From Polyangia bacterium (GTDB taxonomy: Bacteria; Myxococcota_A; Polyangia; HGW-17): 13,565 nucleotides of DNA. Position numbers and translations under genes: made by a program. Positions 1 through 13,565 of this stretch are shown here, piece by piece (within the stretch, counting starts at the first letter, position 1; each line of letters starts with the position of its first letter). Location of the stretch: positions 1 to 13,565 of the forward strand of contig JAWLEA010000016.1 of NCBI GenBank assembly GCA_041686345.1. The letters are read 5' to 3'. The notes under the pieces were generated by a model. That model was not told the origin of the DNA. It saw nothing but the letters and a program-made list of their open reading frames with translations, and did no database searches.

Positions 1-145
1 GTCATCGCCTGAAAGCGGAATTTTACCTCATCATCTTTGTCGTAACTTCTTGAAATAGTGGCAACTATGTCGGCGAAGTTACTCCGCGCATCTGAGGCAA
101 ACTTCTTATTCAGTCAATAACCCCCATTCTGGGATGGGAACTATC
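1..145. mobile_element. MITE-like repeat element, copy A. It is cut by the window's left edge and is the inverted copy of the element at 10243..10405. Its terminal inverted repeat GGGATGGGAACT lies at 131..142.
   Basis: The reverse complement of 1..145 aligns to 10243..10390 at about 85-90% identity. Example: rc 'GATGCGCGGAGTAACTTCGCCGACATAGTTGCCACTATTTCAAGAAGTTACGACAAAG' against 'GATGCGCGGAATAACTTCGCCGACATAGTTGATACTATTTCAAGAAGTTATGACAAAG'. The 14-nt end 'ATAGTTCCCATCCC' is shared exactly. Copy B carries the matching TIR at both of its ends. Confidence 0.6.
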
Positions 146-1136
146 TGGTTATCTTACGCCAGACAGCTTCCATAAGTGGTTTGATACCTTTTTGGGTAAC
201 AGCCGAAATTGGATAAAATTCATAATCTTCAAATTGCTTACGCAATTCTTCGATTCTAGCAGGTTTACTACAAAGATCAATCTTGGACAAAACTACAATT
301 CGAGGCAATTTCGCCAGATTCGGATCGTATTTTTCCAATTCTCTGGAAAGGGTGATAAAATCTTCCCCTGGATCTCCAAATTCAGGATCCAACGGATATT
401 CAATTAAATGAACAAGCACTTTAGTTCTTTCAAGGTGTTTTAAAAAACGATGTCCCAAACCTTTCCCCTGATGAGCTCCCTCAACCAACCCCGGAATATC
501 GGCCATTACAAAATTACGCTCTCCATCAATCTGAACAACTCCAAGATTTGGAATAAGTGTAGTAAAAGGATAGTTGGCAATTTTTGGTTTGGCTGCACTT
601 ACTGAAGAAAGCAAGGTGGATTTTCCGGCATTGGGCAATCCCAATAGACCTGCCTGAGCCAGTAATTTCAATTCTAAACGTAGATTTTTTGCTTCTCCCT
701 TTTCACCGGCTGTACATTTTCTGGGTGCCTGATTTGAAGAAGAAACATAGTGAATATTCCCCCAACCTCCTGTTCCCCCTTGGGCTACAATCAAATTTTC
801 ACCATCCTTGATCAAATCTCCAAGTATCTCTTCAGTATCATCATCTATAACTGTTGTACCTACGGGGACTTTGAGAATCAGATCATCACCACCAGCGCCA
901 TATCGATCGTTTCCCTGTCCATGAGTACCGCTTTTTGCCTTGTAGTGTTTTTTATAACGAAAATCCAGAAGAGTTGAAGCTCTCTCAGTGGCCTGAATAA
1001 TAATGTCTCCGCCTTTTCCTCCATCGCCTCCGCTGGGGCCTCCTTTGGGATTATATTTTTCCCGACGGAAAGCACAACATCCATTACCTCCATTACCTGC
1101 AATTACCTCGATTTTCGCTTCATCTACAAAATTCAT
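141..1136 (-). CDS. obg: GTPase Obg (ObgE/CgtA), 331 aa. ATG start with an AGGAGA Shine-Dalgarno 7 nt upstream.
   Basis: The N-terminal Obg fold signature 'MNFVDEAKIEVIAGNGGNGCCAFRREKYNPKGGPSGGDGGKGGDII' is glycine-rich. G1 is 'GLPNAGKSTLL', G3 is 'DIPGL' and G4 is 'LSKIDL'. Architecture and length are typical of Obg. Confidence 0.95.
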   Translation of the reverse strand: MNFVDEAKIEVIAGNGGNGCCAFRREKYNPKGGPSGGDGGKGGDIIIQATERASTLLDFRYKKHYKAKSGTHGQGNDRYGAGGDDLILKVPVGTTVIDDDTEEILGDLIKDGENLIVAQGGTGGWGNIHYVSSSNQAPRKCTAGEKGEAKNLRLELKLLAQAGLLGLPNAGKSTLLSSVSAAKPKIANYPFTTLIPNLGVVQIDGERNFVMADIPGLVEGAHQGKGLGHRFLKHLERTKVLVHLIEYPLDPEFGDPGEDFITLSRELEKYDPNLAKLPRIVVLSKIDLCSKPARIEELRKQFEDYEFYPISAVTQKGIKPLMEAVWRKITR

Positions 1137-1182
1137 CTTCTATCTCCTGAAAAGATACCGTCCAAAACCGATGCTCTTCATT

Positions 1183-2724
1183 TTATTGATAATATTCTTT
1201 TTTCAGCCATTCATAAAACTTGATACATTGGTTTTCATCAAAATCTTCAAGTTTATAATCATCAATGTAAAGAATCCTGTTATCCCGAGTTCGGTGGACA
1301 AGCAAAAAAACATTATATTGATGAGCTCCAGGCTGACGAGTTATCCGACCCTTGATTTCCATATAGGCAGGATTTGGTTCTTTGTTATCTCTGCCATCAA
1401 TAATTTCGATTGCAGGCAGATAAGAAATATGTTTCAAATAACATTGTTCAATCAACCACTTGCTACCTTCCTTTTCATCTGAGGTATTAAAACCTCGAAA
1501 CAGAATTTTGCGATTAAACCCTTTTTTTGAAAATTCTTCGTCAACAACTACCTGAATTCTCTGTGTTTCCAAATATTTATAATACTTGTACCCAAATGCC
1601 AACCCCAAGAGTAGCAATAAAAGCAGGAAAAAGGTCAGCCAACTTTTTATCCAACTTAAATTCAATCCCAAAAAATTAACTGATTTTGAATTTTCAACAT
1701 TTTTATAATGTTTATCTGAAAAAATTGCTGCTTCCGGAGAACCACAATAAAAATAAAGAAGGTGATTAGGATCTCTGCGATTATCCTTGGCAATACCACC
1801 TTCCCTTGCTTTGTTCAAACTCTTTCCGAAACTTGAACCATTCAGCAATTGTCGGTAAAACTCTGAAGGATAAATTTCAGTATTCTGATCAATAAGATCG
1901 TAAAGAGTTCCAATATAATGTCTGGTATTGGAGACAAGCCAGGACTTGGCAAATTCTAATCCCTCCTGATGGTTATTTCCCCCGCAGGAATGGGAAAAAA
2001 CCAACCAGGGCATAGAACCGGTTTTGCCAATATCTCTGATCTGATCTGCAGAAAGAATTCCGTCACTGAGTTTCCAACCACATTTCCTGCCATTATCAAC
2101 GAGGTGACCAATATAATGAATCAAATCGTATTGTTTTATATATTTTTTCATCTCGGCACAACCGGGGTTGGTTTTATATCTGACTTTTAATTTTTTTTCT
2201 TTTCCCAGTTGCTGAAAGAGGGACTGCCCTTCTTCCCAACTCTGAGGAAGATTTTGCTCCGGATCGGAAACAACAATCAACAGATCCAGAGGATAAAAAT
2301 ATCCCTTTTTAATTTTTCTGTGTGAGCTTTCGGAAACCAGGATTCTGCCCAGATAAAAACGATGCAGAGCAAACTCATTGTCAAAAACAAGCAATTCCCA
2401 AGGAAGATGAAATATTTCCTCATCAAGAGTCAGAGTAAGATTACCTCTGGCTTGGGCAAGATTTCTGATTATCTCGCGAGGGAGAAGAAGAGAAGTAAGT
2501 TGCTCACCACAGGCTTTGATATCTTTAAGAATTTGATTTTCCAACCGTTCTTTACCAATTGCCAAAGAAAAATTGGAAAAAATTTCCTGACTTATTTCTT
2601 CACTTAACTTTTTATTATAAATGCTAATCCCCTTGATAAATTCCCCTCCGATACTTAGAGTACAGAGAATTTTGCCTTCATGAAACACAAGGGTAAGATT
2701 CAAAAGCAGCCTTTCTGATTCCAA
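1183..2724 (-). CDS. CHAT-domain (caspase-like, clan CD) protease carrying one internal transmembrane helix and a C-terminal domain of about 125 aa with unknown function. Predicted start is TTG at 2722-2724, with no clear Shine-Dalgarno, 10 nt after the stop of the upstream gene.
   Basis: A His/Cys dyad sits in CHAT-like context: 'DLIHYIGHLVD' (H-x-G-H) and 'PWLVFSHSCGGNN' (catalytic Cys). The upstream 'LPWELL' motif is typical of CHAT N-flanks. A hydrophobic segment 'WLTFFLLLLLLLGLAFGYKYY' follows the protease domain. The C-terminal region (QVVVDEEF...EWLKKEYYQ) matches nothing I recognise. There is no N-terminal signal peptide. Confidence 0.75.
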   Translation of the reverse strand: MESERLLLNLTLVFHEGKILCTLSIGGEFIKGISIYNKKLSEEISQEIFSNFSLAIGKERLENQILKDIKACGEQLTSLLLPREIIRNLAQARGNLTLTLDEEIFHLPWELLVFDNEFALHRFYLGRILVSESSHRKIKKGYFYPLDLLIVVSDPEQNLPQSWEEGQSLFQQLGKEKKLKVRYKTNPGCAEMKKYIKQYDLIHYIGHLVDNGRKCGWKLSDGILSADQIRDIGKTGSMPWLVFSHSCGGNNHQEGLEFAKSWLVSNTRHYIGTLYDLIDQNTEIYPSEFYRQLLNGSSFGKSLNKAREGGIAKDNRRDPNHLLYFYCGSPEAAIFSDKHYKNVENSKSVNFLGLNLSWIKSWLTFFLLLLLLLGLAFGYKYYKYLETQRIQVVVDEEFSKKGFNRKILFRGFNTSDEKEGSKWLIEQCYLKHISYLPAIEIIDGRDNKEPNPAYMEIKGRITRQPGAHQYNVFLLVHRTRDNRILYIDDYKLEDFDENQCIKFYEWLKKEYYQ

Positions 2725-2734
2725 ATCAACAGAA

Positions 2735-3571
2735 TCAATATTTTTCTATTATGGAAAAACTAACATTTTTCCCATAGGGAAAGAGGTAGTTGCTCTTTTG
2801 GTGGCCGGCTGGAAACCCAGCAAACAAAGGTATTTTCAAGTGATATTTTTTGATCAGATTGATGAAAATACTTCCGGGATTTCTACAGCCGGAAAAAGAA
2901 CCCATGATAAGTGATTTTGCCTGTTTGATATTAGTGGAAATAAGAAGATGATTCAACATTCGATCAATCTTATAAGGGGGCTCGTTAACATCTTCGAGAA
3001 TCACAATCTTGTCTTTGTAATCAGGTTCACAAGCAGTAGCTGTCATGGAACAAAAGGTTGCAAGATTCCCTCCCAATAATTCTCCAGTCAATTCGGAATG
3101 ATTTTCACATTGAAAGAGAGGTGATATTCCAGGCAATTTTCTAAAATTAAAAGAAATACTGTCAAAAAATTCCAAAATAAATTGCAAAGATTCTCTTTCA
3201 AGTAAAGGAAGTTGGGTTAAAACTGGGCCGTGAAAAGAAGCAACTCCCATCTGGCACCACAATTCCAGCAATATGGTAATATCTGAAAAACCCACCAGAG
3301 GCTTGGGGTTATTGCTCAAAGCAGTTCTCAACCTTTTATGATCTAATCTCATTGCTCCGTATCCACCCCTGGCAGCCAAAATTAAATTGATTTTTTTATC
3401 ATTAAGAGCCCTGATTATACTCTCAGTACGTTCTTTGTCATCTCCTGCCAAATATTTTGTATCTGATTTTTTAACAGCAAAAATCCTGAAAGGAAGCTTC
3501 CTCAACAGTTCCAAACCTTGATTAAATCTTGACAACTGAACAGGTCCGCTTGGAAAAACAATACCAATCAA
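2735..3571 (-). CDS. ldcA: LD-carboxypeptidase, peptidase family S66 (LdcA/MccF-like), 278 aa. TTG start with a strong GGAGGTG Shine-Dalgarno 6-7 nt upstream.
   Basis: The N-terminal 'IGIVFPSGPV' matches the S66 consensus IGIIAPSS. 'GGYGAMRL' is present. The nucleophile motif is 'GFSDIT' (Ser). A C-terminal 'GHQ' His lies near 'FPAGH'. A TGA stop sits immediately upstream in frame, so the TTG is the first possible start. Confidence 0.85.
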   Translation of the reverse strand: MIGIVFPSGPVQLSRFNQGLELLRKLPFRIFAVKKSDTKYLAGDDKERTESIIRALNDKKINLILAARGGYGAMRLDHKRLRTALSNNPKPLVGFSDITILLELWCQMGVASFHGPVLTQLPLLERESLQFILEFFDSISFNFRKLPGISPLFQCENHSELTGELLGGNLATFCSMTATACEPDYKDKIVILEDVNEPPYKIDRMLNHLLISTNIKQAKSLIMGSFSGCRNPGSIFINLIKKYHLKIPLFAGFPAGHQKSNYLFPYGKNVSFSIIEKY

Positions 3572-3715
3572 TCAAACACCTCCGCCATTAATTGGAGAAA
3601 TATTCCCCTTACATAAAGATAAAACCTTAATTTGTGGGCAGGGAAAATAAAGATGGGAAAAAACAATGAAAATTTAAGAACAATTTATTAATGAAATATG
3701 CTTTGCTCAAATTTA

Positions 3716-4558
3716 CTATTTTTCATCTTTTTTCTTTTTCTTGCTTTTCTTTTTCTTACTTTTCTTTTTCTTGCTTTTCTTTTTCTTACTTTTCTTTTTC
3801 TTGCTTTTCTTTTTCTTTTGTTTATCTTCACTTTGTTCAGGCTCTTCAGGTGCTGAATCAGAACTCTTTTCCGATTCAGAATCATCGGAATCGGTTTCAG
3901 GTGTTTCAAGTTCTGCTTCTTCCAGGTTAGAAGTATCTTCCGAAGTCTCTTTGTTTTCATCTTTTTCAGAAACTTCATCTGTTTCTTCCTCAACTTCGTC
4001 TTCCTCAAGAGTTTCTTCTTCCTCCGCAGAAACATCTGTTGCCGGGGAGGTTTCTTCCTCAACTTCGTCTTCCTCAAGAGTTTCTTCTTCCTCCGCAGAA
4101 ACATCTGTTGCCGGGGAAGTTTCTTCCTCAACTTCGTCTTCCTCAGGAGTTTCTTCTTCCTCCGCAGAAACATCTGTTGCCGGGGAAGTTTCTTCCTCAA
4201 CTTCGTCTTCCTCAGGAGTTTCTTCTTCCTTATTTCTGATTGGTTCTTCCAACTGAATTTCGGAATCAGTCAACTTCTCCATTTTTTTGAGATTGTCAGC
4301 GCTGAGTTCCACCCAAGCCAATTCCATTTGACTGTCGGAATCACGTTTAACTTTTTCTTTGACCGATTTTACAACACAATCACCCTCTATTTCCATGTCT
4401 TCGGTTTTTAATATAATTTTCAATTCTGTTGCAACAGGCATGGGTTTTTCTTCTGTAATTCTTATTTTATTGGAAGAACTGATAAAAATCTGTGCATCCT
4501 CAGTCAGAAGTATATCTCCATAAAAAACATTTCCTTGCATTGCTTTATCTTTACTCAT
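3716..4558 (-). CDS. Charge-block protein with three parts: an N-terminal globular domain of about 95 aa, 3.4 tandem copies of an acidic 23-aa repeat (EEETPEEDEVEEETSPATDVSAE), and a C-terminal (KKKKS)6-KKKKKDEK tail. The likely start is the ATG at 4558 (MSKDKAMQG...) with a GGAGA Shine-Dalgarno. The ORF track begins at a TTG at 4603 that lacks one.
   Basis: The long ORF spans the entire repeat region in one frame. The repeats are near-identical at DNA level (69-nt period). The extreme composition is consistent across the ORF. The N-terminal domain is non-repetitive (ILLTEDAQIFISSSNKIRITEEKPMPVATELKIILKTEDMEIEGDCVVKSV). Confidence 0.6.
   Translation of the reverse strand: MSKDKAMQGNVFYGDILLTEDAQIFISSSNKIRITEEKPMPVATELKIILKTEDMEIEGDCVVKSVKEKVKRDSDSQMELAWVELSADNLKKMEKLTDSEIQLEEPIRNKEEETPEEDEVEEETSPATDVSAEEEETPEEDEVEEETSPATDVSAEEEETLEEDEVEEETSPATDVSAEEEETLEEDEVEEETDEVSEKDENKETSEDTSNLEEAELETPETDSDDSESEKSSDSAPEEPEQSEDKQKKKKSKKKKSKKKKSKKKKSKKKKSKKKKKDEK
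3741..3830. repeat. 30-nt-period tandem repeat, 3 copies (TTTTCTTGCTTTTCTTTTTCTTACTTTTCT), that encodes the (KKKKS)n tail.
   Basis: Direct reading of 3741..3830. Confidence 0.9.
3978..4230. repeat. 69-nt tandem repeat in about 3.5 near-identical copies, with unit starts at 3991, 4060, 4129 and 4198. It encodes the acidic 23-aa repeat.
   Basis: The unit is 'CAACTTCGTCTTCCTCAAGAGTTTCTTCTTCCTCCGCAGAAACATCTGTTGCCGGGGAGGTTTCTTCCT'. Copies differ by 1-2 SNPs (caagag/caggag, ggagg/ggaag). Confidence 0.9.
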
Positions 4559-4664
4559 TTTTTTCTCCAATACTTCATGTTCAACTTTTACAATATTTTG
4601 CAAGAATCATTTTCCAATTCCGCAAGTTCAACCGCAATTATTCTTTTTCATGTTCATGGTATAA

Positions 4665-5966
4665 TCAAGCCGATTGAGGAGAACCACAATAAGGACAAAA
4701 CTTGGCTCCCGGTGACAACTCTTTTTGACATTTTACACAAACAGGCTTGGCTGCTTGTTCCTGGTTTGAACCACAATTGGGGCAAAATTTGGAACCTTTA
4801 ATAATCGGTGTCTGACATTTGATACACGGAACTTTTTCTTGCTTAGATTCAAACTTGTTTCCACAATTAGGACAAAATTTAATTCCCGGTCCTACCGGAT
4901 AATTACATTTAGGGCATTTCTGTCCGGCAGCCTGCTGATGACCATGCTGCTGCCGAGTATGTTGTTGTTTACCATGTTGCTGCTGATAACCTTGTTGGGC
5001 TCCCATACCAGCCGCTGCTCCCATACCGGCCTGTTGGCGCATTTGTTGCTGGTGGGGAGGCATTCCACCCTGAGGAGGCATTCCACCCTGAGGAGGCATT
5101 CCACCACCCTGCATCCCGGGCGCCATTCCCTGGGACATCATTCCGGGCATCATAAACCCCATACCGAGTCCCATGCCCATGCCCATACCGCTTCCGGCAA
5201 CTCCACCTTCGTTCTGGGCAGCATCTCTCATGGCATAGCCCATTTGATATTGCTGAAATGCAGGCATGCTTTCTTCGAAAAGACCAAGACCAGAACGTTC
5301 GTCGATCTTTTTCTGTACTTCCTTGGGAGGACTGATGGCGTTGATACGCAAATCTTCCAACTCAAGTCCGTTCTTGGCAAAATCCTGAGCCAACCTTGCT
5401 TTGCAAGCAGCTGTTACTTCATCATACATTGCAGGCAGATCAAAAATTGATTTCATTACCTCGCCAAGAACATCGGTCATTCTTTGCACGACTGAATCAC
5501 GAACCCAATTGGCAAGATCTTTGGCAGAATATGTTTTACTGGATTTGAGTCTCTTATTGCTGAAAAGCACCGGATCGACAATTTTATAAGTCATAGTACC
5601 GAATGAACGAAGTCGAACAACTTTCAAAACGGAATCCCTAAAAGAAATGGGTTCTTTTGTGCCCCATTTTTGATCGTCAATCAAACCGGTATCAACAAAA
5701 ACAACCTCAGCTTTAAAAGGTGTTTGACCTCCAAAAGGAAGATTGATCAACTTGGAAAGAATTGGCAAATTAGCTGAAGTCAGGGTATGACGACCTGGAC
5801 CAAATGAATCCAGTGCCTGCCCTCCCCTGTAGAAAATTGCTGTTTGGGCTTCCCTGACAATTAATTGTGCTCCCAGCTTGATATCCGCATTGAGATCTTC
5901 TGGAAGACGCTTTGCCATTACTTCACGGGTTTGATCTTGAAATTCCAGTAATTCTATTATAGCCAT
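4665..5966 (-). CDS. SPFH/Band-7 (stomatin/prohibitin-like) domain protein of the COG4260 / B. subtilis YdjI type. It has a Gly/Met/Gln-rich low-complexity linker and three C-terminal zinc ribbons. ATG start with a GAGAGGAA Shine-Dalgarno.
   Basis: The N-terminal 'MAIIELLEFQDQTREVMAKRLPEDLNADIKLGAQLIVREAQTAIFYRGGQALDSFGPGRHTLTSANLPIL' resembles the YdjI family. The region of about 200-215 is coiled/EA-rich. The linker reads 'GMGMGMGLGMGFMMPGMMSQGMAPGMQGGGMPPQGGMPPQGGMPP'. Three ribbons each have C-x2-C-x9-14-F-C-P-x-C-G: 'CPKCNYPVGPGIKFCPNCG', 'CIKCQTPIIKGSKFCPNCG' and 'CVKCQKELSPGAKFCPYCG'. Confidence 0.85.
   Translation of the reverse strand: MAIIELLEFQDQTREVMAKRLPEDLNADIKLGAQLIVREAQTAIFYRGGQALDSFGPGRHTLTSANLPILSKLINLPFGGQTPFKAEVVFVDTGLIDDQKWGTKEPISFRDSVLKVVRLRSFGTMTYKIVDPVLFSNKRLKSSKTYSAKDLANWVRDSVVQRMTDVLGEVMKSIFDLPAMYDEVTAACKARLAQDFAKNGLELEDLRINAISPPKEVQKKIDERSGLGLFEESMPAFQQYQMGYAMRDAAQNEGGVAGSGMGMGMGLGMGFMMPGMMSQGMAPGMQGGGMPPQGGMPPQGGMPPHQQQMRQQAGMGAAAGMGAQQGYQQQHGKQQHTRQQHGHQQAAGQKCPKCNYPVGPGIKFCPNCGNKFESKQEKVPCIKCQTPIIKGSKFCPNCGSNQEQAAKPVCVKCQKELSPGAKFCPYCGSPQSA
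5056..5110. repeat. 21-nt tandem repeat, 3 copies (GGAGGCATTCCACCCTGAGGA), that encodes GMPPQG repeats inside the SPFH protein linker.
   Basis: Direct reading. Confidence 0.8.
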
Positions 5967-6073
5967 ATGTTCCTCTCTTAATTACCCGAAAAATATTTAC
6001 CGATTAAATTCGGGCAGAATGTCAGTCGTTTCAGCTATTCGACCAAATCAAATCATGACAAGGATATATTACT

Positions 6074-6559
6074 TTATCCAATTGTCTTCCTCAAGAGATT
6101 TTCTCTATCATTGAGATGAGTATCCATAGCTCTGAGGGAATTAGTCAATTTCATGAACAGGGGCTTTATGTTTTCACCCTCTGCAAATTTGGTTTCGATT
6201 TCTTCGAGAGCACTGAAAACTTTTTCCCGATGTTCTTCGAGTTTTTTGTCAAATTCAGCTATTGCCTCAATTGACTTGGTTTCTGTTTTGCTGCCAAAAA
6301 GATTACCGGCAAAACCCTGATTAGACCAACGCAAGCGGTCTCTAACCTTGGTCAGCAACATAGTTGCATTCTCTGCATCATTCATCAATGAAATTTTGCT
6401 TAGATCGGAAGTTATATTGTATTTTACCTGCTCCAGGCGATCGTGGACTTCTTTCATCTTGGCAGTTAAATAATCCCTGAAGGCGCGATCAGTGGCTCGA
6501 GATTGTGTTCTTTCGCGATAACCTTTATAACCTGGTATAATATAATCAAGTACAGCCAT
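6074..6559 (-). CDS. Hypothetical 161-aa soluble protein, predicted alpha-helical/coiled-coil. ATG start with an AGGAGA Shine-Dalgarno. Only 11 nt separate it from the upstream TM gene.
   Basis: Clean ORF with a good Shine-Dalgarno. Heptad-like charged sequence (KMKEVHDRLEQVKYNITSDLSKI...KKLEEHREKVFSALEEIETKF). No motif I can assign. Its position directly upstream of the SPFH gene suggests a partner role. Confidence 0.55.
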   Translation of the reverse strand: MAVLDYIIPGYKGYRERTQSRATDRAFRDYLTAKMKEVHDRLEQVKYNITSDLSKISLMNDAENATMLLTKVRDRLRWSNQGFAGNLFGSKTETKSIEAIAEFDKKLEEHREKVFSALEEIETKFAEGENIKPLFMKLTNSLRAMDTHLNDRENLLRKTIG

Positions 6560-6570
6560 AATTATCTCCT

Positions 6571-6927
6571 TTAATTAGTTGAATTTTGTTTCTTTTTGAG
6601 GACAAAGACAACAACAACAAGCACTCCTGCAATTAAAACCAGAAAAGGCCAGGTTCTGGCCATGGGAATAACATTGCTGGTACTGAGTAAAAGCAAAATA
6701 AAAAATGAAGTCAGAAAAAGGGAACCAGGCCACCAGTCGGTTGCACCACCTGAATAGGTAACAAAAGCTATAGCTGCAAACAGAATAGTTGGTATCAAAG
6801 GCCAAAGAGTTCCAAATCCTGGTCCATCAAAGGTAAAGGAAACAATTAATACAATTGCAGCTGCAAACAAGGTTGCAACTACCGGGATTAATGCAGATAT
6901 ACCGGAATTAGATTTTTCTTCACTCAT
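6571..6927 (-). CDS. Small integral membrane protein with about 4 TM helices. The likely start is the ATG at 6927 (MSEEKSN...) with an AAGGA Shine-Dalgarno 9 nt upstream. The ORF-track start at 6969 lacks one.
   Basis: Hydrophobic stretches: 'ISALIPVVATLFAAAIVLIVSF', 'LWPLIPTILFAAIAFVTY', 'WWPGSLFLTSFFILLLLSTS' and 'FLVLIAGVLVVVVFVL'. Tight spacing to the flanking genes. Confidence 0.6.
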   Translation of the reverse strand: MSEEKSNSGISALIPVVATLFAAAIVLIVSFTFDGPGFGTLWPLIPTILFAAIAFVTYSGGATDWWPGSLFLTSFFILLLLSTSNVIPMARTWPFLVLIAGVLVVVVFVLKKKQNSTN

Positions 6928-6972
6928 ATATTTATCCTTTCTTGATCTGAATAAACCAAATCGAACCAAAAA

Positions 6973-9249
6973 TTATTTTTTGGTGGTTTTTGTCTTTTTT
7001 TGCTTGAGAATTTTGAATTCCACTCTTCTGTTCTTGCGACGCAACCTTGCAGAAATATTGGCATATCTAGGTCTGTTTTTACCGTAACCTTTTACTTCAA
7101 GGCGAGAAGCTTCAACTCCTTGTTTGACCAGATATTTTTTAACTGCTTGAGCCCGTTTGCGGGAAAGCTTGAGATTATAACTTGAAGAACCGTGATTGTC
7201 GGTGTGGCCTTCGATTCTGACTTTTAAAACTTCGGGATGTTCGATCAAAATTGAAGCAACTGCATCAAGAGTTTCATAAGAACGCGATCTCAAAACAGCT
7301 TTGGCGTATTTGAAATGGATTCGTTTTTTAATACTGATTTTTTTGTAGCGTTTGCTGAGTGTAGCAACACTGCGCTTTGGTTTGCGTTTCAGACTTATTT
7401 GCAAATCCATTTTTTTGCATTTGGACATGGTGATAGTTTTTGAACGACTGAAATATTTGTCCTTTTTGAACACCACCTGATAAGCACCAGGCCTTACCTT
7501 GAGAACCACTTTTCCTTCTGGATCAGTGGAGCCTTCCCTGGTTAAGGAGTTGCCTTTCATTGTTTCGCCTTTAATTTGAACTTTAGCTTTTGACAAAGGT
7601 TTATTCTTTTTCTCACTTTTTACAAATACAGAAACAGGGCATGGTTTTGCCTGTTTGGATTTGAGTTTTACAATCAGGCTTTTTTGAGGTGTTTCCTTGT
7701 TAATTTTAACTTCAACTTCCTTGTTGTGATAACCTTTTTTCCAAAACTTCATTTTATACTTGCCGGGAGCCAATTCATAGGAAACAAAGCCACCGGATTC
7801 ATCACTTGATTGATCGCTTTTACCCAATCCTACATAGGAAATTTTAACTTTAGGCAACGGGTTTTCCTTGTCATCAATAACTTTACCAAGAATAATTCCT
7901 TTGAATTCCTTTTTGTCTACTTCCTTTATCTTTTCCTTGACCACTACTTTAGGCTTGCAAACAGCCGGAGCTGCGGTAGTACCAGGGGTTTTGTAATAAG
8001 TGATTCCAGCAAAAAGATTGTAAACGGGCAAAGAAGGAGAAACTGCATAACCTGGATAATCAAGTGCCAGTTCAACTCCACCCTGAACAACAAAATTTTT
8101 GGCGAATTGGTATTTCAAGCCGAAGGTCAACTGTTGGGAAAGAGCATCGTCAGGAGAACCTCCACCTGAAACATCAACTCTGTCCTGCCAGGTAAGCAGA
8201 TTGGAATCTGCTGAATCGGTAAAATAATTTAAATTGTAATCAACAAAGGGGATAATAAGATTGCCGGCAAGATTAATTGGAAATTCAAGCCCTGCAGTGA
8301 AGTTGATCCTGCTTCTGGAAACCCCCATAGCGAACTGTCTGACAACATATTGATAAAAAGGTTCCATACTGGCGTTTTCAGAAGAAAGTGGAGAATCTTC
8401 CATGAGAGCATAGGAATTGTCATAAATAAAACCGAGATTGACATGTCCTATTATTCGGAGAGGCAAAGAACCTCTAAGCCCTTTACTGTCAAAACGAGCC
8501 AAGCCGATCGCTCCAAGGGAACTGGCAGCCGGATCGGGATAAACCTGACCCACTCCACTCACAAGTTTGCCAAATCCCTGCAAACCCAAATTCAAAAAAC
8601 TGTTAACCGGATAGACATATTTGACAGAAAAAAGAAAATCTCCTAGAGCCGATTGCATATCAGGCTCGGCAGATAATACCTCATGATTTCTTTCATTTAC
8701 ATTGGCGTGGGCAAAAACAGAAGCTGAAATTTCGAAATTATGTGGCAGAAAAATTCCCCATGAAATAAGTCCTCCAAACCTGGAATTCTTTTCATTAGCA
8801 TCAGCTATAATAAAATCAGACCAGGAAAAATAATCCATTCCGTAGCCCAGATAAAAAGTCCAGGGCTTTGCGGTTGCAGCTGCAGCAGTATAACGAAGAC
8901 CAACATTTCCGTTTTTGTTGATACTGGGAAAAACCGAATAATCGGAGATAGATCTCGAAGCAGTACCAGAACTTTTTTCTGTTTTTGCAGTTTTTTCATC
9001 AGTCAACTTTGTTTTGTCGGCGTCAGATCCAGGTTTGAGTTTTTCTTGAGATGTATCATTTTGTGCAGCTTCAACTTCTTTCGATTCCGGCTTTTTATCT
9101 TTATCATCTGCAAGAGCTGCAAAAGATGATTTTTCAGGTTTTTCTTCATTTTTATTTTCGGTCGCATCAGTTGTTTTATTTTGAGCAACAGCAGAATTCC
9201 AAACAAAATTTGAAAACAATATTATTAAAAGGGAAAAAACCGCTTTCAT
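6973..9249 (-). CDS. OmpA-family outer-membrane protein of about 758 aa. It has a signal peptide, a Lys/Glu-rich disordered region, a putative beta-barrel/porin-like region, two CarboxypepD_reg-like (transthyretin-like) domains and a C-terminal OmpA peptidoglycan-binding domain. The likely start is the ATG at 9249 with a GGAGGT Shine-Dalgarno.
   Basis: Signal peptide 'MKAVFSLLIILFSNFVWNSAVAQ'. OmpA_C motifs 'IEGHTDNHGSSSYNLKLSRKRAQAVKKYLVKQGV...NRRVEF'. CarboxypepD_reg-like segments 'GIILGKVIDDKENPLPKVKISYVGLG...GGFVSYELAPGKYKMKF' and 'KAKVQIKGETMKGNSLTREGSTDPEGKVVLKVRPGAYQVVF'. The middle region is rich in aromatic/Gly alternation typical of a beta-barrel. Confidence 0.85.
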   Translation of the reverse strand: MKAVFSLLIILFSNFVWNSAVAQNKTTDATENKNEEKPEKSSFAALADDKDKKPESKEVEAAQNDTSQEKLKPGSDADKTKLTDEKTAKTEKSSGTASRSISDYSVFPSINKNGNVGLRYTAAAATAKPWTFYLGYGMDYFSWSDFIIADANEKNSRFGGLISWGIFLPHNFEISASVFAHANVNERNHEVLSAEPDMQSALGDFLFSVKYVYPVNSFLNLGLQGFGKLVSGVGQVYPDPAASSLGAIGLARFDSKGLRGSLPLRIIGHVNLGFIYDNSYALMEDSPLSSENASMEPFYQYVVRQFAMGVSRSRINFTAGLEFPINLAGNLIIPFVDYNLNYFTDSADSNLLTWQDRVDVSGGGSPDDALSQQLTFGLKYQFAKNFVVQGGVELALDYPGYAVSPSLPVYNLFAGITYYKTPGTTAAPAVCKPKVVVKEKIKEVDKKEFKGIILGKVIDDKENPLPKVKISYVGLGKSDQSSDESGGFVSYELAPGKYKMKFWKKGYHNKEVEVKINKETPQKSLIVKLKSKQAKPCPVSVFVKSEKKNKPLSKAKVQIKGETMKGNSLTREGSTDPEGKVVLKVRPGAYQVVFKKDKYFSRSKTITMSKCKKMDLQISLKRKPKRSVATLSKRYKKISIKKRIHFKYAKAVLRSRSYETLDAVASILIEHPEVLKVRIEGHTDNHGSSSYNLKLSRKRAQAVKKYLVKQGVEASRLEVKGYGKNRPRYANISARLRRKNRRVEFKILKQKKTKTTKK

Positions 9250-9344
9250 TTTTACCTCCACATACTGGTAATGTATTTTTTGGCAGACATAGTTAGTTTT
9301 TTAGCACACATTCCATAAAATTAAAATTGTATTCTGCAAGTAAT

Positions 9345-10223
9345 TCAATTTACTGATTGGGCACAGCGAAAACCAAGTTGAGGAGCAAAAAATTCTGCCG
9401 GAACCACCTGCCTGATTGTAGTTCTGATACTGGCAGGGCTATCAAGGCAGGAGCCTCCCCTGATTATATGGTTCTTTTTTTTATCTTCTTTAATTTTAAT
9501 AGATTCCAACCGATTATAACCTGCTTTTCTGCCTTTTGGATCATTTTGCTTGTCCCAGGATTCTTTCAGGGTTGCAGTCCATTCCCAAACATTACCCGCT
9601 TGATCCATGGTTCCATAGGGAGATTTTCCCTGAGGACAGGAGCCAACAGGCTTAGGTGCCAATGAAGAACATTGATTAAAAACAGCTTTTTTGCAATCGG
9701 GAGGAGATTCACCCCAGGGATAACGACGAGCATCCGTCCCGCGAGCAGCTTTTTCCCATTCAAATTCTGAAGGCAGACGTTTATCAACATATCTGCAATA
9801 ACGGGAGGCATCCTTAAAAGTTATACCAGAAACCGGGAGACTATTTTCCAACTGCATTTCCAACCGAGGCGAGGAACATATATTGGCTTTAATGCATTTT
9901 TCGTATTCTCCCCAAGTAACTTCAAATTTATCGATAAAAAAACTGTCAACAAAAACCATTTTCTGGGGTTTTTCCAATCTGCCTCCTGCTGTATTACCCA
10001 GGTAAAACTTGCCTGCAGGAATAAAAACCATACCTGCAGGAGCCTTTTTGGAGGTTTTCACAGGAACATTTTCCAAATCCACACATTTGTGTTGTAGACA
10101 TAATTTTCCAGAGTCACACTGGGAATTTGAAACACACTCGCCCCAATCTTCTGAATAAACTACTTTGTTTCTCTCTTTACATCCAAATGTCAGAAAAAAC
10201 AAACAAAATAGAAATGTTTTCAA
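9345..10223 (-). CDS. Formylglycine-generating-enzyme (FGE-sulfatase/SUMF1) family lipoprotein with a Cys-rich N-terminal mini-domain. TTG start with an AGAGGA Shine-Dalgarno.
   Basis: Lipobox 'LTFGC'. Cys-rich segment 'EDWGECVSNSQCDSGKLCLQHKCVD'. FGE-sulfatase signatures: 'MVFIPAGKFYLG', 'VSGITFKDASRYCRYVDKRLPSEFEWEKAARG', 'GNVWEWT', 'RGGSC' and 'GFRCA'. Confidence 0.8.
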   Translation of the reverse strand: MKTFLFCLFFLTFGCKERNKVVYSEDWGECVSNSQCDSGKLCLQHKCVDLENVPVKTSKKAPAGMVFIPAGKFYLGNTAGGRLEKPQKMVFVDSFFIDKFEVTWGEYEKCIKANICSSPRLEMQLENSLPVSGITFKDASRYCRYVDKRLPSEFEWEKAARGTDARRYPWGESPPDCKKAVFNQCSSLAPKPVGSCPQGKSPYGTMDQAGNVWEWTATLKESWDKQNDPKGRKAGYNRLESIKIKEDKKKNHIIRGGSCLDSPASIRTTIRQVVPAEFFAPQLGFRCAQSVN

Positions 10224-10242
10224 AATAATCCTCTTTTTTAAT

Positions 10243-10405
10243 AGTTCCCATCCCAGAAGTGGTGTTTTTGACTGGGGAAGAAATTGGATTGAGATGCGCG
10301 GAATAACTTCGCCGACATAGTTGATACTATTTCAAGAAGTTATGACAAAGCAGATTAATTCAATTTCCGTCGCCAGACGATGACATCCATTTTTGGGATG
10401 GAACT
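10243..10405. mobile_element. MITE-like repeat element, copy B, complete at about 163 bp. Terminal inverted repeats are AGTTCCCATCCCA (10243-10255) and TGGGATGGAACT (10394-10405). It sits between the large lipoprotein gene and the RBS of the FGE-family gene.
   Basis: Its internal sequence is 85-90% identical to the reverse complement of 1..145. The two ends are mutually inverse complementary. It contains no ORF. One sequence line near 10200 appears to hold 59 characters, so coordinates here may be off by 1. Confidence 0.6.
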
Positions 10406-10462
10406 AAATAACCTTGTTTAAAAAAATAAACAACTTGGTACTTCAGGTCAAAATAAAAATTT

Positions 10463-12457
10463 TTAATTAAGATCTTTTCGGCGAACTTCGTTTTGGTTGA
10501 ATTGAAGACTTGTACAAGGGGTCGATGTAACCAGAGGAGGTGAAGTTGAATTATCAAGAGTTCCGGTGCAATCAGGTGCGAGCGATTCGTTTTGACATTC
10601 TGCCGATTGGGGGCCCTGTACAGGATCATAATTGTATTCAATGCAAATCCTCAGGGGTCGACTGACACCTGCATTGCCTGCATTATCGACAGCCTTGACT
10701 GCAGCACAAGTCCACCCTTCCGAAATATTATTGGCCAGGGAATCAAATTGAATTCCTGCACATAAGGTGGGATTGGTGGAATCTACCGGAGGCAGGGTGT
10801 AAATAGCCGGTTCAGACATATCATAAGTATACCAGACAGCAGTGGTAATATCTCCGGAAACTACAGGACAAAGGGGATCAGGAGGATCAGTATCATCTCC
10901 GGGAGCCTCACAGCCAATACCCGGATCGGGTAAGGAGGAATCAACCGTAAAATCTGCACTTCCGGTGGGATCAATTTTATACATTTGAAGCATAAGGGTT
11001 TCCAGGGAACTGCCGGTAAGATGAACAGTGGGAACAAGTTCCGGGTTGATACTGTCACAAATGCCATCGCTGTTAGAGTCGACAACCAGAGGATGATCAG
11101 CATCGTCAAGGATATATAGTTCAACTGAAGAATGATCAACCAGAGAAAGTGGGGTATAAACACTTCCGGGAGCATTATTCCCCTGATCTTCAACTCTTGC
11201 CCGTATCCAGAACAATTGGGAAACAACTTCCATGTCATCGACTGCACTTTCCCCTACAGGATCGAATTCCCAAGAACAACTGATGAGGCCGTCAGCATTT
11301 TCTTCGGCCAACCTGAAATTTTCTGGAGGATCCATACTTGCCAGAGGCGAAGTATTGTCCAAAGCAATCTCGAAACCGATTGAAGCTTCATTTTCAAGTT
11401 GATCTGAAGCAAAAACCTGTAGAGCCGGCCAGACAAAATTGGTGGGAAGAACAGAAGTATCAAAGGAACCGGCATAGGCATCAGTTCCTTGAACCTTGGC
11501 AAGGGGTATTTCGTAGTTTAAATCATTATTGCCGATAATGGCAAAAACAGATGAAGTTTGAACACCAGCCGGATCGACAATCTCAGCCTCAATCTGAATA
11601 ATCCCTCCAACAATTTCGCCGGGAGAATGGGAAAGGATCGAAATAACAGGACCGTTGTTGTCAATTGTAAAATCAACTTCCCTGGTAGCACTGTTGGTTA
11701 AAGAATTGAAAGCCTCTAAAACAATTCTTTTTTCACCTGTCAGGGGTGGAGAAAAAATTGAATCTTCAAAAACAATCTCGGTATTGTATGTAACAGTAAG
11801 GGGATTGCCGTTTGCTGTCTCAGTTGATTCATTATCTACAGTCAATTCAATTTCAACATTTCCAATAAAACAATTGGTATCACCGGGAATTATCCCGTCG
11901 TTGTCATATACTGTAAAGGAAAGATTGAGAGCACCGTGATAACGATCACCATCTTCCGGAGAATGAACTGTAAAAGTAGGTCCCTTATCCAGATTAAAGG
12001 TGCCATCTGTATAAGAAGTCCTGCCTTGAACATCTTGAGCCGTAATTCTGAAGGTAGTATCTCCGTCAGGAATTTCCGAGAGGTCGATTGTGACCATAAA
12101 GCCATTGTCTGTGGTGGGATCCACAGTCATTGAATATTCATCTCCCTCAACAGTTACCATGACAGAACCATAATCCACACTTGAACTTCCTGATACTATG
12201 ACTGCTTTAATCTTTAGAAAATCAGCACTTACAACCTGCCCGGTCTCAGGGCTGGTTATGGTGATTTCGGGACCATCTGGATCAGCGTCAGGGACATCAG
12301 GAAGTTCAGTATGATCTTGGGAACCGTCGGCATCAATCCCAGTATCTTCAACTCCTGAATCATTTGGAGGCACTGGATTGTAGTCATCATCGTTTTCACA
12401 TCCCCCGGAAAAAACCATTAAGAAAAGGATTATCAGGATTTTAAAGCTAATTTTCAT
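10463..12457 (-). CDS. Large acidic lipoprotein of 664 aa. It is probably cell-surface or periplasmic and built from multiple beta-sandwich-like domains. ATG start with a GAGGTG Shine-Dalgarno.
   Basis: Signal peptide plus lipobox 'LMVFSGGC'. Asp/Thr/Ser/Gly-rich composition with periodic hydrophobic-alternating beta patterns. Several Cys pairs in the C-terminal third. No catalytic motif recognised. Confidence 0.7.
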   Translation of the reverse strand: MKISFKILIILFLMVFSGGCENDDDYNPVPPNDSGVEDTGIDADGSQDHTELPDVPDADPDGPEITITSPETGQVVSADFLKIKAVIVSGSSSVDYGSVMVTVEGDEYSMTVDPTTDNGFMVTIDLSEIPDGDTTFRITAQDVQGRTSYTDGTFNLDKGPTFTVHSPEDGDRYHGALNLSFTVYDNDGIIPGDTNCFIGNVEIELTVDNESTETANGNPLTVTYNTEIVFEDSIFSPPLTGEKRIVLEAFNSLTNSATREVDFTIDNNGPVISILSHSPGEIVGGIIQIEAEIVDPAGVQTSSVFAIIGNNDLNYEIPLAKVQGTDAYAGSFDTSVLPTNFVWPALQVFASDQLENEASIGFEIALDNTSPLASMDPPENFRLAEENADGLISCSWEFDPVGESAVDDMEVVSQLFWIRARVEDQGNNAPGSVYTPLSLVDHSSVELYILDDADHPLVVDSNSDGICDSINPELVPTVHLTGSSLETLMLQMYKIDPTGSADFTVDSSLPDPGIGCEAPGDDTDPPDPLCPVVSGDITTAVWYTYDMSEPAIYTLPPVDSTNPTLCAGIQFDSLANNISEGWTCAAVKAVDNAGNAGVSRPLRICIEYNYDPVQGPQSAECQNESLAPDCTGTLDNSTSPPLVTSTPCTSLQFNQNEVRRKDLN

Positions 12458-12674: not shown

Positions 12675-13565
12675 TTATACATATTTCTGGCAATTATCGC
12701 ACCAATTGCGCTGATATTGCTGAATATATCGAGTTGGTCCACCACAGGTAGTGCATCTTTTACTTTGAGGTTGAGCCTGCTGCTGAGGTTGAGCCTGTTG
12801 CTGAGGTTGAGCCTGCTGCTGAGGTTGAGCCTGCTGCTGGGGTTGAACCTGCTGTTGGGGTTGAACCTGCTGTTGTGGTTGAGCCTGCTGCTGGGGTTGA
12901 GCCTGTTGCTGGCCAAAATTATTGCCAGGCTGAGCTCCCATGGCTCCGCCGGCGGCCACACCGCCCATTGCCTGACCCATGCCGGAATTTTGGGCTTTTT
13001 GAAGCATATTGTTTGCTTTTTCTACAAAAGAATTGGGAAGAAAAGTTTGAACTGCACCTTCTTCTTTGAAATTCTTGACATAATACATGATACAAAAAAT
13101 AAAGGCAGGCAGAAGAGTAAGAACAGAGGAAAGAGCAAAATCAAAACCGTTGTTTTTGAATTCGAAGGTGAACAGGATACGGATAAGCTCTGAAAGTTGC
13201 AAAAGGCCGATAAAGCCAACTAAGAATACAGCAAGTGCATAGAAAAGTTTGCGGGGTATGAAATTCTTTTTGACATCCAGTTTGACCAGAATGAATTCCA
13301 CAATAACTATCACCAGAGTGTAGCCGATGAAAATGGACAAGGAAGTCTTGATGCCCTCTCCAATTCCAACGGGACTGCTGAATATTTTGCCGACAAATGT
13401 ATTGAGAAACCCGGTTACGGACATTATTGCCCCGAGAAAAAAGGACAATTGGATGGAATAAAGTACGACCTTAAGGAAAAGTAGTTTATCCTGCTTTTCC
13501 TCATCTTTGTCTTTTTGAAGCATGAATGCCAAAGCGAAAAGAATGGGAATAAAAATAGCTGACAT
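12675..13565 (-). CDS. Integral membrane protein with about 4 TM helices. Its cytoplasmic tail is a Gly/Met-rich segment, then a (QQQAQP/QQQVQP)x8 repeat, then a terminal zinc ribbon. The N-terminus may extend beyond the window edge.
   Basis: TM segments 'IFIPILFALAFML', 'LSFFLGAIMSVTGFL', 'IFIGYTLVIVIVEFILV' and 'LFYALAVFLVGFIGLL'. Tail 'SGMGQAMGGVAAGGAMGAQPG...QQQAQPQQQAQP...'. Zinc ribbon 'CTTCGGPTRYIQQYQRNWCDNC'. The ORF reaches position 13565 with an ATG, but no in-frame upstream stop is visible. Confidence 0.65.
   Translation of the reverse strand: MSAIFIPILFALAFMLQKDKDEEKQDKLLFLKVVLYSIQLSFFLGAIMSVTGFLNTFVGKIFSSPVGIGEGIKTSLSIFIGYTLVIVIVEFILVKLDVKKNFIPRKLFYALAVFLVGFIGLLQLSELIRILFTFEFKNNGFDFALSSVLTLLPAFIFCIMYYVKNFKEEGAVQTFLPNSFVEKANNMLQKAQNSGMGQAMGGVAAGGAMGAQPGNNFGQQQAQPQQQAQPQQQVQPQQQVQPQQQAQPQQQAQPQQQAQPQQQAQPQSKRCTTCGGPTRYIQQYQRNWCDNCQKYV
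12768..12912. repeat. 18-nt tandem repeat in about 8 copies (GGTTGAGCCTGCTGCTGA and variants). It encodes the QQQAQP repeat.
   Basis: Direct reading. Copies differ by synonymous or conservative changes (gagc/gaac, ctg/ttg). Confidence 0.9.

Follow-up and report, generated by a model that had tools for sequence, protein, structure and literature searches.

The window analysed here, the whole stretch of 13,565 nucleotides (nt) from a contig of an uncultured Polyangia bacterium, carries two inverted repeats that bracket 10.1 kb of genes. Both repeats are, at a probability of about 0.9, copies of a 162-bp non-coding miniature inverted-repeat transposable element (MITE), a non-autonomous relative of insertion sequences (IS) of the ISNCY type (NF033593, ISRm17-like) that inserts at TANNTA with a duplication of 6 bp. 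One of them, copy A, is found at the 3' end of obg and is cut by the window edge, and the other, copy B, is complete. The MITE family is new and belongs to an uncultured deltaproteobacterial lineage; the kind of element is already known and this is an ordinary case of it, which does not change the understanding of how MITEs work and is chiefly a matter of annotation and assembly. To our knowledge, MITE derivatives of the ISNCY-type IS family are poorly documented. A literature search on TANNTA, ISDol1 and ISNCY MITEs yielded nothing relevant, and NTANNTAN was encountered in it only as the 8-bp target of eukaryotic hAT elements.

The inverted pair in the window

A repeat finder returned one outstanding inverted pair in the window, with arms of 144 nt at 1-144 and 10241-10384 that are 81% complementary; the next best inverted pair measured just 32 nt. 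When the reverse complement of 1-160 was aligned with 10225-10420, similarity was unbroken from ..TAGTTCCCATCCCAGAA to the window edge, and blastn likewise matched the reverse complement of copy A to copy B. The three methods agree with the initial annotation of this DNA that the pair is real and that copy A is truncated by the edge. The copies are less alike than had been stated. Over the 141 nt of copy A that the window includes they are 80% identical, where 85-90% had been given, and their best 58-nt window has four mismatches instead of three; the longest exact run is 20 nt. Copy B had been placed at 10243..10405. The element is indeed present there, but its true ends lie 1 nt further in, the adjoining A on its left and T on its right being bases of the 6-bp target duplication and hence outside the element. 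Copy B measures 161 bp, its right repeat being short by one G relative to the family. The complete form of copy A was recovered past the window edge, at 1037-1198 of a contig from the window's own genome (L026). The parts of the two copies are as follows.

1..141, minus strand: copy A, positions 1-141 of the 162 of the element, cut by the window edge (nhmmer score 152.8, profile positions 1-141)
127..141, minus strand: left terminal inverted repeat of copy A, with GTTCCCATCCCAGAA as its minus-strand sequence (terminal-repeat scan and sequence)
142..147, minus strand: target-site duplication on the left of copy A, reading CAGATA in the minus-strand direction; relatives have aacTAAATTtgccg at the empty site (sequence)
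L026 1199-1204, outside the window: right target-site duplication of copy A, TAGATT (sequence)
10238..10243, plus strand: left target-site duplication of copy B, TTAATA, with 5/6 bases the same as in the right-hand one
10244..10404, plus strand: copy B, complete, 161 bp, from G10244 to C10404, antisense to the flanking genes (blastn, profile search and alignment)
10244..10258, plus strand: left terminal inverted repeat of copy B, with the sequence GTTCCCATCCCAGAA; full-length ISNCY-type IS have identical termini (terminal-repeat scan)
10390..10404, plus strand: right terminal inverted repeat of copy B, TTTTTGGGATGGAAC, short of the family consensus GGGAAC by one G (alignment)
10405..10410, plus strand: right target-site duplication of copy B, TAAATA (sequence)

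Both copies are non-coding, as had been noted before. The sole listed open reading frame (ORF) that touches copy B (10360..10641, minus strand, 93 amino acids) is spurious and overlaps the real gene for a 664-amino-acid protein. A small ORF in the conserved core, of 17 codons in copy A, was dismissed on visual inspection, as it lacks a ribosome-binding site (RBS) and the changes in the paired arms would be non-synonymous.

Two inverted copies on either side of 10.1 kb could also be the ends of a segmental duplication or of a composite unit, serving as recombination substrates that invert the block between them. However, similarity does not extend beyond the element into the flanks, which are unrelated, each copy has a separate target duplication, and relatives without both copies have the same gene order and direction as the window. 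Besides, 80% identity with at most 20 nt of exact run makes the pair a poor substrate for homologous recombination, and inversion would leave a block whose genes all point one way running counter to its neighbours; all ten long ORFs of the window are on the minus strand. We regard such an origin or activity as highly improbable. The initial annotation had mentioned both, the 10-kb inversion as something that the copies could mediate and a larger duplication as what might overturn the MITE; the former found no support and the latter is contradicted by the flanks and by the duplication proper to each copy.

A dispersed family of the element

To find further members of the MITE family, a 20-mer of the conserved core (TAACTTCGCCGACATAGTTG) was used as seed against a genome collection. 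It matched 25 contigs, all of them from one metagenome-assembled genome (MAG), Deltaproteobacteria bacterium isolate GH18. With blastn and nhmmer at least 35 full-length copies were identified, 34 on the GH18 contigs (about 180 kb examined) and the window's copy B, in addition to fragments. Whether there were more than the two copies of the window had been a point to check in the initial annotation, and this is clearly the case. The full copies measure 160-163 bp and are 77-92% identical to copy B, and the mean pairwise identity of 35 aligned copies is 83%. As the loci were picked by the core 20-mer, the apparent conservation of the core is inflated. No blastn match to the element was obtained in plasmid and phage collections, and after masking of the family no second dispersed repeat or IS fragment was common to the GH18 loci.

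Alignment of the flanks showed that similarity breaks exactly at GTTCCCATCCCA...TGGGATGGGAAC (GTTCC...GGAAC). These ends, GTTCCCATCCCA at the start and TGGGATGGGAAC at the end, are kept at both ends of nearly all copies; the start consensus is GTTCCCATCCCA(G/A)AA and the end is the reverse complement of the same. At L006, L015 and L018 the element forms head-to-tail arrays.

Derivatives of 36-55 nt that consist of little beyond the two terminal repeats were also observed (L007 843-883, L025 1786-1820, L001 919-953 and L019 1382-1436). Perfect 6-bp duplications surround two of these, TAAATA in L007 and TATTTA in L025. The derivatives may be internal deletions by microhomology or may represent a separately mobile mini-family. 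Orphan terminal-repeat matches in the loci were considered as IS ends; this was rejected, as they are truncated copies or such internally deleted derivatives.

The window is not part of GH18. Its Obg was matched exactly in GCA_051747125.1 (L026) and in one Logan assembly, the Obg proteins of GH18 and of a JGI contig (L028) are 88-89% identical to it, and the next homologue is at 63%. The host is a sparsely sampled lineage with a G+C content of about 40%. In L026, past window position 1, the region 1037-2691 contains the whole of copy A, a tandem pair of full copies and one truncated copy, all within 1.7 kb downstream of obg. None of these four insertions occurs in the two close relatives, and they reflect either a hotspot at this locus or a burst of recent insertions in that genome. 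In the 18 kb known of the window's genome, five full copies and a partial one were counted. Lineage-specific insertions of the family distinguish close relatives, and the family also accounts for contig breaks in this lineage, the window itself ending inside a copy. A shorter, diverged version of the element, of about 135 bp (GTTCCCATCTCA...TGAGATAGGAAC), was found in the JGI relative at L028 17335-17463. The family is therefore older than the split of these genomes.

Target-site duplication and empty sites

The 6-mers that flank the copies fit TANNTA as a direct repeat. They are identical in 16/33 copies and match at five or more of the six positions in 25/33, and the central NN is the same on both sides of a copy in 20/33 (61%) versus 14% between different copies. 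The initial annotation had proposed a search for target-site duplications, and this 6-bp one is what was found. Its length follows from a pair of empty and occupied sites. L028 and the GH18 contig L029 both read CAT-TAGTTA-GTATAAGG, and L026 reads CAT-TAGTTA-[162 bp]-TAGTTA-[162 bp]-TAGTTA-GTTTAAGG. One TAGTTA has turned into three around two insertions; the duplication therefore measures 6 bp, and the element runs from a terminal G to a terminal C. A 4-bp parse (ANNT, with AGTTCC...GGAACT as ends) had been considered because the flanks of copy A share only AGAT. This parse, as well as a 2-bp NN parse, is ruled out by the exact TAGTTA empty site. The shorter duplications are also contradicted by the empty site at obg, at which TAAATT runs directly into the right flank.

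The sites of both window copies were found empty in relatives. At obg, L028 and GH18 (L029) have a 22-nt spacer, ...cgtaaggtaaacTAAATTtgccgaacaggag, at the place where the window's genome reads ...cgtaagataacCAGATA[element]TAGATTtgccgaacaggag. The right flank of copy A, TAGATT followed by tgccg..., is contiguous target DNA, and its left duplicate has since been altered to CAGATA. The copy B site is empty in another GH18 contig (L062), in which the spacer between the orthologous Big_7 and FGE genes is 75 nt long with both sides conserved, versus 239 nt in the window. Both copies in the window are insertions that are absent from relatives.

Autonomous relatives of the ISNCY type

Metagenomes were scanned with TANNTA followed by the terminal repeat, in which one position was set against the base of the MITE to keep its copies out. 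Among the 32 matches, several lead straight into an ORF starting MRK..QQL.IVEP..H.HA.EL. L038, L049 and L043 contain complete IS (of 1666, 1693 and 1793 bp, respectively) that have these termini, over 12-15 nt, at either end. Further complete IS, of 1693-1704 bp and with GTTCCC(A/G)TCCC termini, were reached via transposase homologues (L063, L065 and L066/L067); their flanks are TANNTA-like, left and right matching at 4-5/6 positions. The ORF of these IS, of about 450 amino acids, encodes an IS5-like DDE transposase and scored 421-471 bits on NCBIfam NF033593 (transpos_ISNCY_1, cutoff 325), with 420.8 for L049 and 470.5 for L038. It contains the domains DUF772 and DDE_Tnp_1 and matches IS5 and IS1182 models more weakly. 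There are more than 6800 transposase homologues, mostly on contigs of IS size. Their best annotated relative is ISRm17, an ISNCY-like IS of Sinorhizobium meliloti, at 46-48% amino acid identity. One ISRm17 copy has the termini GTGCCCGTCCATAAAC (GTGCCCGTCC...) and TAGTCTA on both sides, that is, a 7-bp repeat. The NF033593-type IS are presumably the ISDol1 group of ISfinder, which are 1.6-1.9 kb long and have 6-7-bp direct repeats.

At its terminus the MITE has GTTCCCATCCCA(R)AA, exactly as do full-length metagenomic IS of the NF033593 type, and this sequence fits the GTnCCCnTCC pattern of ISRm17. The target duplications are of the same TA..TA shape, with 7 bp in ISRm17 and 6 bp in the MITE. 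The left end of the MITE and the transposase-distal end of the IS in L063 match at 25/30 positions. Tandem insertion with one shared duplicated target is also common to both: as with the tandem MITEs of L006 and L026, two full IS in L065 (1-3423, JGI 3300031842) stand in direct tandem with a single TAGTTA between them. In contrast to the IS, the MITE has no ORF in its 162 bp and cannot move itself, its interior is unrelated and it is palindromic over its full length. With dispersed copies, duplications, empty sites and IS with matching termini at hand, the initial description, MITE-like with short terminal inverted repeats, is well founded. As to the cognate transposase that had been called for, IS with matching termini and a transposase do exist in metagenomes, but none was found in about 200 kb of sequence from this lineage.

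The MITE is most likely mobilized in trans by an ISNCY-type transposase. Both this enzyme and a cut-and-paste chemistry are inferred. The transposase, supplied in trans, would bind both terminal repeats of the MITE, excise it and paste it into a staggered 6-bp cut at TANNTA. Insertion would regenerate TANNTA on both sides, so that further copies could land adjacent to it and give rise to head-to-tail arrays. The family offers a clean natural example of ISNCY-type target choice, with TANNTA, the 6-bp duplication, tandem re-insertion, and empty and occupied sites alongside each other.

Several observations weigh against the MITE and its proposed partner. The likeness between MITE and IS is confined to about 30 terminal nt, the interior being unrelated to any of these IS, and no ISNCY-type transposase gene was found in the about 200 kb of GH18 and window-genome sequence. 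The 6-mers flanking copy A (CAGATA and TAGATT) match at just 4/6 positions, and relating its left flank to the empty site requires a deletion of 1 nt. Furthermore, compensatory changes in the arms of the element and an excess of G-U over A-C in its hairpin (see below) are not required by double-strand cut-and-paste. The missing partner may be absent from the fragmented MAGs, which often lose IS copies, or it may have been lost.

Since the element is intergenic, palindromic, multi-copy and at times clustered or in tandem, it was also compared with palindromes of the REP/BIME type, which are spread by a RAYT enzyme (IS200/IS605-like HUH) and not by a DDE transposase, and which the initial annotation had listed as an alternative. 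At 162 bp, however, the element far exceeds the 20-40 nt of a REP unit, and it is surrounded by a 6-bp target duplication, a mark that HUH insertion does not leave and that HUH-dependent REP units lack. It shares identical termini with DDE (ISNCY) IS, and no RAYT gene was seen. An origin of this type is accordingly most improbable.

The MITE can better be placed among the bacterial MITEs, of which Correia/NEMIS (Neisseria), ERIC (enterobacteria), RUP (Streptococcus), Nezha (cyanobacteria) and Chunjie (Geobacter) are known. Like these, it is small, non-coding and intergenic, has terminal inverted repeats, a target duplication and tens of copies, and shows subfamily mosaics, a long hairpin and frequent abutting of gene ends. 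It differs from them in that its partner is of the ISNCY type and not IS630, IS5 or IS1595, in its 6-bp TANNTA target instead of TA or TNA, and in its host, a different and uncultured lineage.

An unrelated element of 176 bp, whose termini are the same and whose TAGGTA duplication is perfect, was encountered at L030 405-580 (Ga0307990_1000152), in a metagenome of higher G+C content. ISNCY-type IS appear to have given rise to MITEs more than once.

Position of the copies relative to genes

The genes next to the two copies in the window are the following.

141..1136, minus strand: obg (GTPase), its 3' end struck by copy A (Pfam GTP1_OBG, 6.9e-62)
141..143, minus strand: stop codon TAG of obg, formed by the duplicated TA and the first G of the element (ORF list, Pfam Obg and comparison with relatives)
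9345..10223, minus strand: gene of the FGE-sulfatase family, with copy B directly upstream of its RBS (Pfam FGE-sulfatase, 1.3e-46)
10463..12457, minus strand: gene for a 664-amino-acid Big_7-domain protein with a lipoprotein-like signal peptide, N-terminus MKISFKILIILFLMVFSGGC (ORF list, Pfam and inspection of the N-terminus)

All copies that were scored against crude ORF calls (36/36) are intergenic. No orientation preference with respect to genes was detected, neither between co-directional genes (10 sense and 9 antisense) nor among copies at most 35 nt after a stop codon (8 versus 8). In nine copies the flanking ORF stops at a TAG to which the duplication contributes TA and the element its terminal G, and in other copies the stop is the TA(A/G) that opens the duplicated 6-mer. 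As the target starts with TA(A/G) and the element with G, the stop codon is kept or recreated and insertions at gene ends are therefore tolerated. That such insertions are harmless is probably the reason why so many copies survive there, and the position of copy A at the obg stop is explained in the same way.

Copy A lies in sense orientation directly after obg. The suggestion that the terminal repeat supplies the stop codon of this gene holds, as its TAG combines the duplicated TA with the first G of the element. The C-terminus of Obg was remodelled after the insertion. It reads ...WRKVN-TAA in the relatives (L028 9020-9036) and ...WRKITR-TAG in the window (141-160, minus strand). The remodelling amounts to a 1-nt deletion plus two changes in the left duplicated 6-mer; the protein ends ...WRKITR and not ...WRKVN because the left duplicate was changed (to CAGATA) and one upstream base was lost. 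In this way the last codons of an essential GTPase have been rewritten without destroying it. Copy B stands between the genes for the Big_7 protein and the FGE-family protein and is antisense to both. As described earlier, it is located between the 3' end of the lipoprotein gene and the RBS of the FGE-family gene, 58 nt past the stop codon of the 664-amino-acid protein and about 9 nt ahead of the AGAGGA RBS.

The hairpin and a possible role at the RNA level

Copy B folds into one end-to-end hairpin of -76.4 kcal/mol (z = -10.8), compared with -52.6 for its complement. The strand with GTTCCC folds better than its complement in 33/35 copies, with means of -68.3 versus -53.3 kcal/mol. In a consensus hairpin of 62 pairs, 92% of the cells pair and 14 pairs are changed on both sides. 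The covariation score of 0.154 was reached in 0/500 shuffles (0.110) and exceeded all slid controls. Entire segments of the stem occur in two mutually compensating versions, TTGGATTGAG / ATCAATTCAA and TTTGCCTCAG / ATGAGGCAAA. G-U cells outnumber A-C cells by 206 to 37. Among variants common to several copies the numbers are 21 G-U versus 6 A-C, and among private variants 12 versus 18 (Fisher p = 0.007).

These data could be taken to mean that the element, a MITE by origin, has its long hairpin maintained as a structured RNA, acting, if transcribed together with adjacent genes, as a target of RNase III, as a stabilizer or destabilizer of mRNA or as an attenuator between them. This would add to its nature as a MITE. 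RNA-level roles in co-transcripts have been proposed for ERIC and Correia elements. The strand bias in folding, the G-U excess in variants common to several copies, the two-sided pair changes with a covariation above that of all 500 shuffles and the place of copy B between co-directional genes, close to an RBS, all speak for such a role. On the other hand, the copies show no orientation bias, either between co-directional genes or after stop codons, and many are mosaics in which arms of different subfamilies are combined and pairing has been lost (L021, L017 and L014). The shuffle control is known to be beaten by related sequences without structure, and the choice of loci by the core 20-mer inflates the conservation of the core. 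Moreover, the element has no terminator-like or promoter-like site and matches no Rfam family. A maintained RNA function is for these reasons considered unlikely. A more specific version, slightly less likely still, is that the hairpin is selected on one strand as RNA, the source copies that spread tolerating G-U but not A-C and swapping stem segments in a compensatory manner. If this were true, the family would double as a mobile RNA-structure module that alters the processing or coupling of neighbouring genes, such as the lipoprotein and FGE genes at copy B.

A scan of copy B for promoters and terminators gave nothing inside the element, and a search of the whole window against Rfam 15 at gathering thresholds gave no match. 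Together with the lack of an orientation preference, this argues against a family of small-RNA, terminator or attenuator elements as had been suggested at first. Around copy B, Rfam matches with E up to 10 were all at chance level, and the best of these sub-threshold matches was WsnRNA46, with 19.9 bits versus a threshold of 65.3 and E = 0.19. It represents a weak full-length similarity of 10241-10403 to Wolbachia sRNA 46, and probably reflects merely the common shape of long hairpins.

Other features of the window

Besides the genes next to the copies, Pfam searches of the window identified a CHAT protease-like protein, an LD-carboxypeptidase, an SPFH/zinc-ribbon protein and an OmpA-like protein. 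A minus-strand ORF of 295 amino acids (3716-4603) without a Pfam match contains two tandem repeats, one of 69 nt in 3.6 copies that are 97-98% identical (3981-4230) and a T/C-rich one of 15 nt (3715-3834). At 12730-12927, about 11 units of 18 nt (TGAGGTTGAGCCTGCTGC) are repeated in tandem within a minus-strand ORF (12675-13565) that runs off the window. The SPFH/Band-7 gene (4665-5966, minus strand) has zinc-ribbon-coding units repeated about 87-90 nt apart at 4684-4890, and an 18-nt triplet repeat at 5053-5106.

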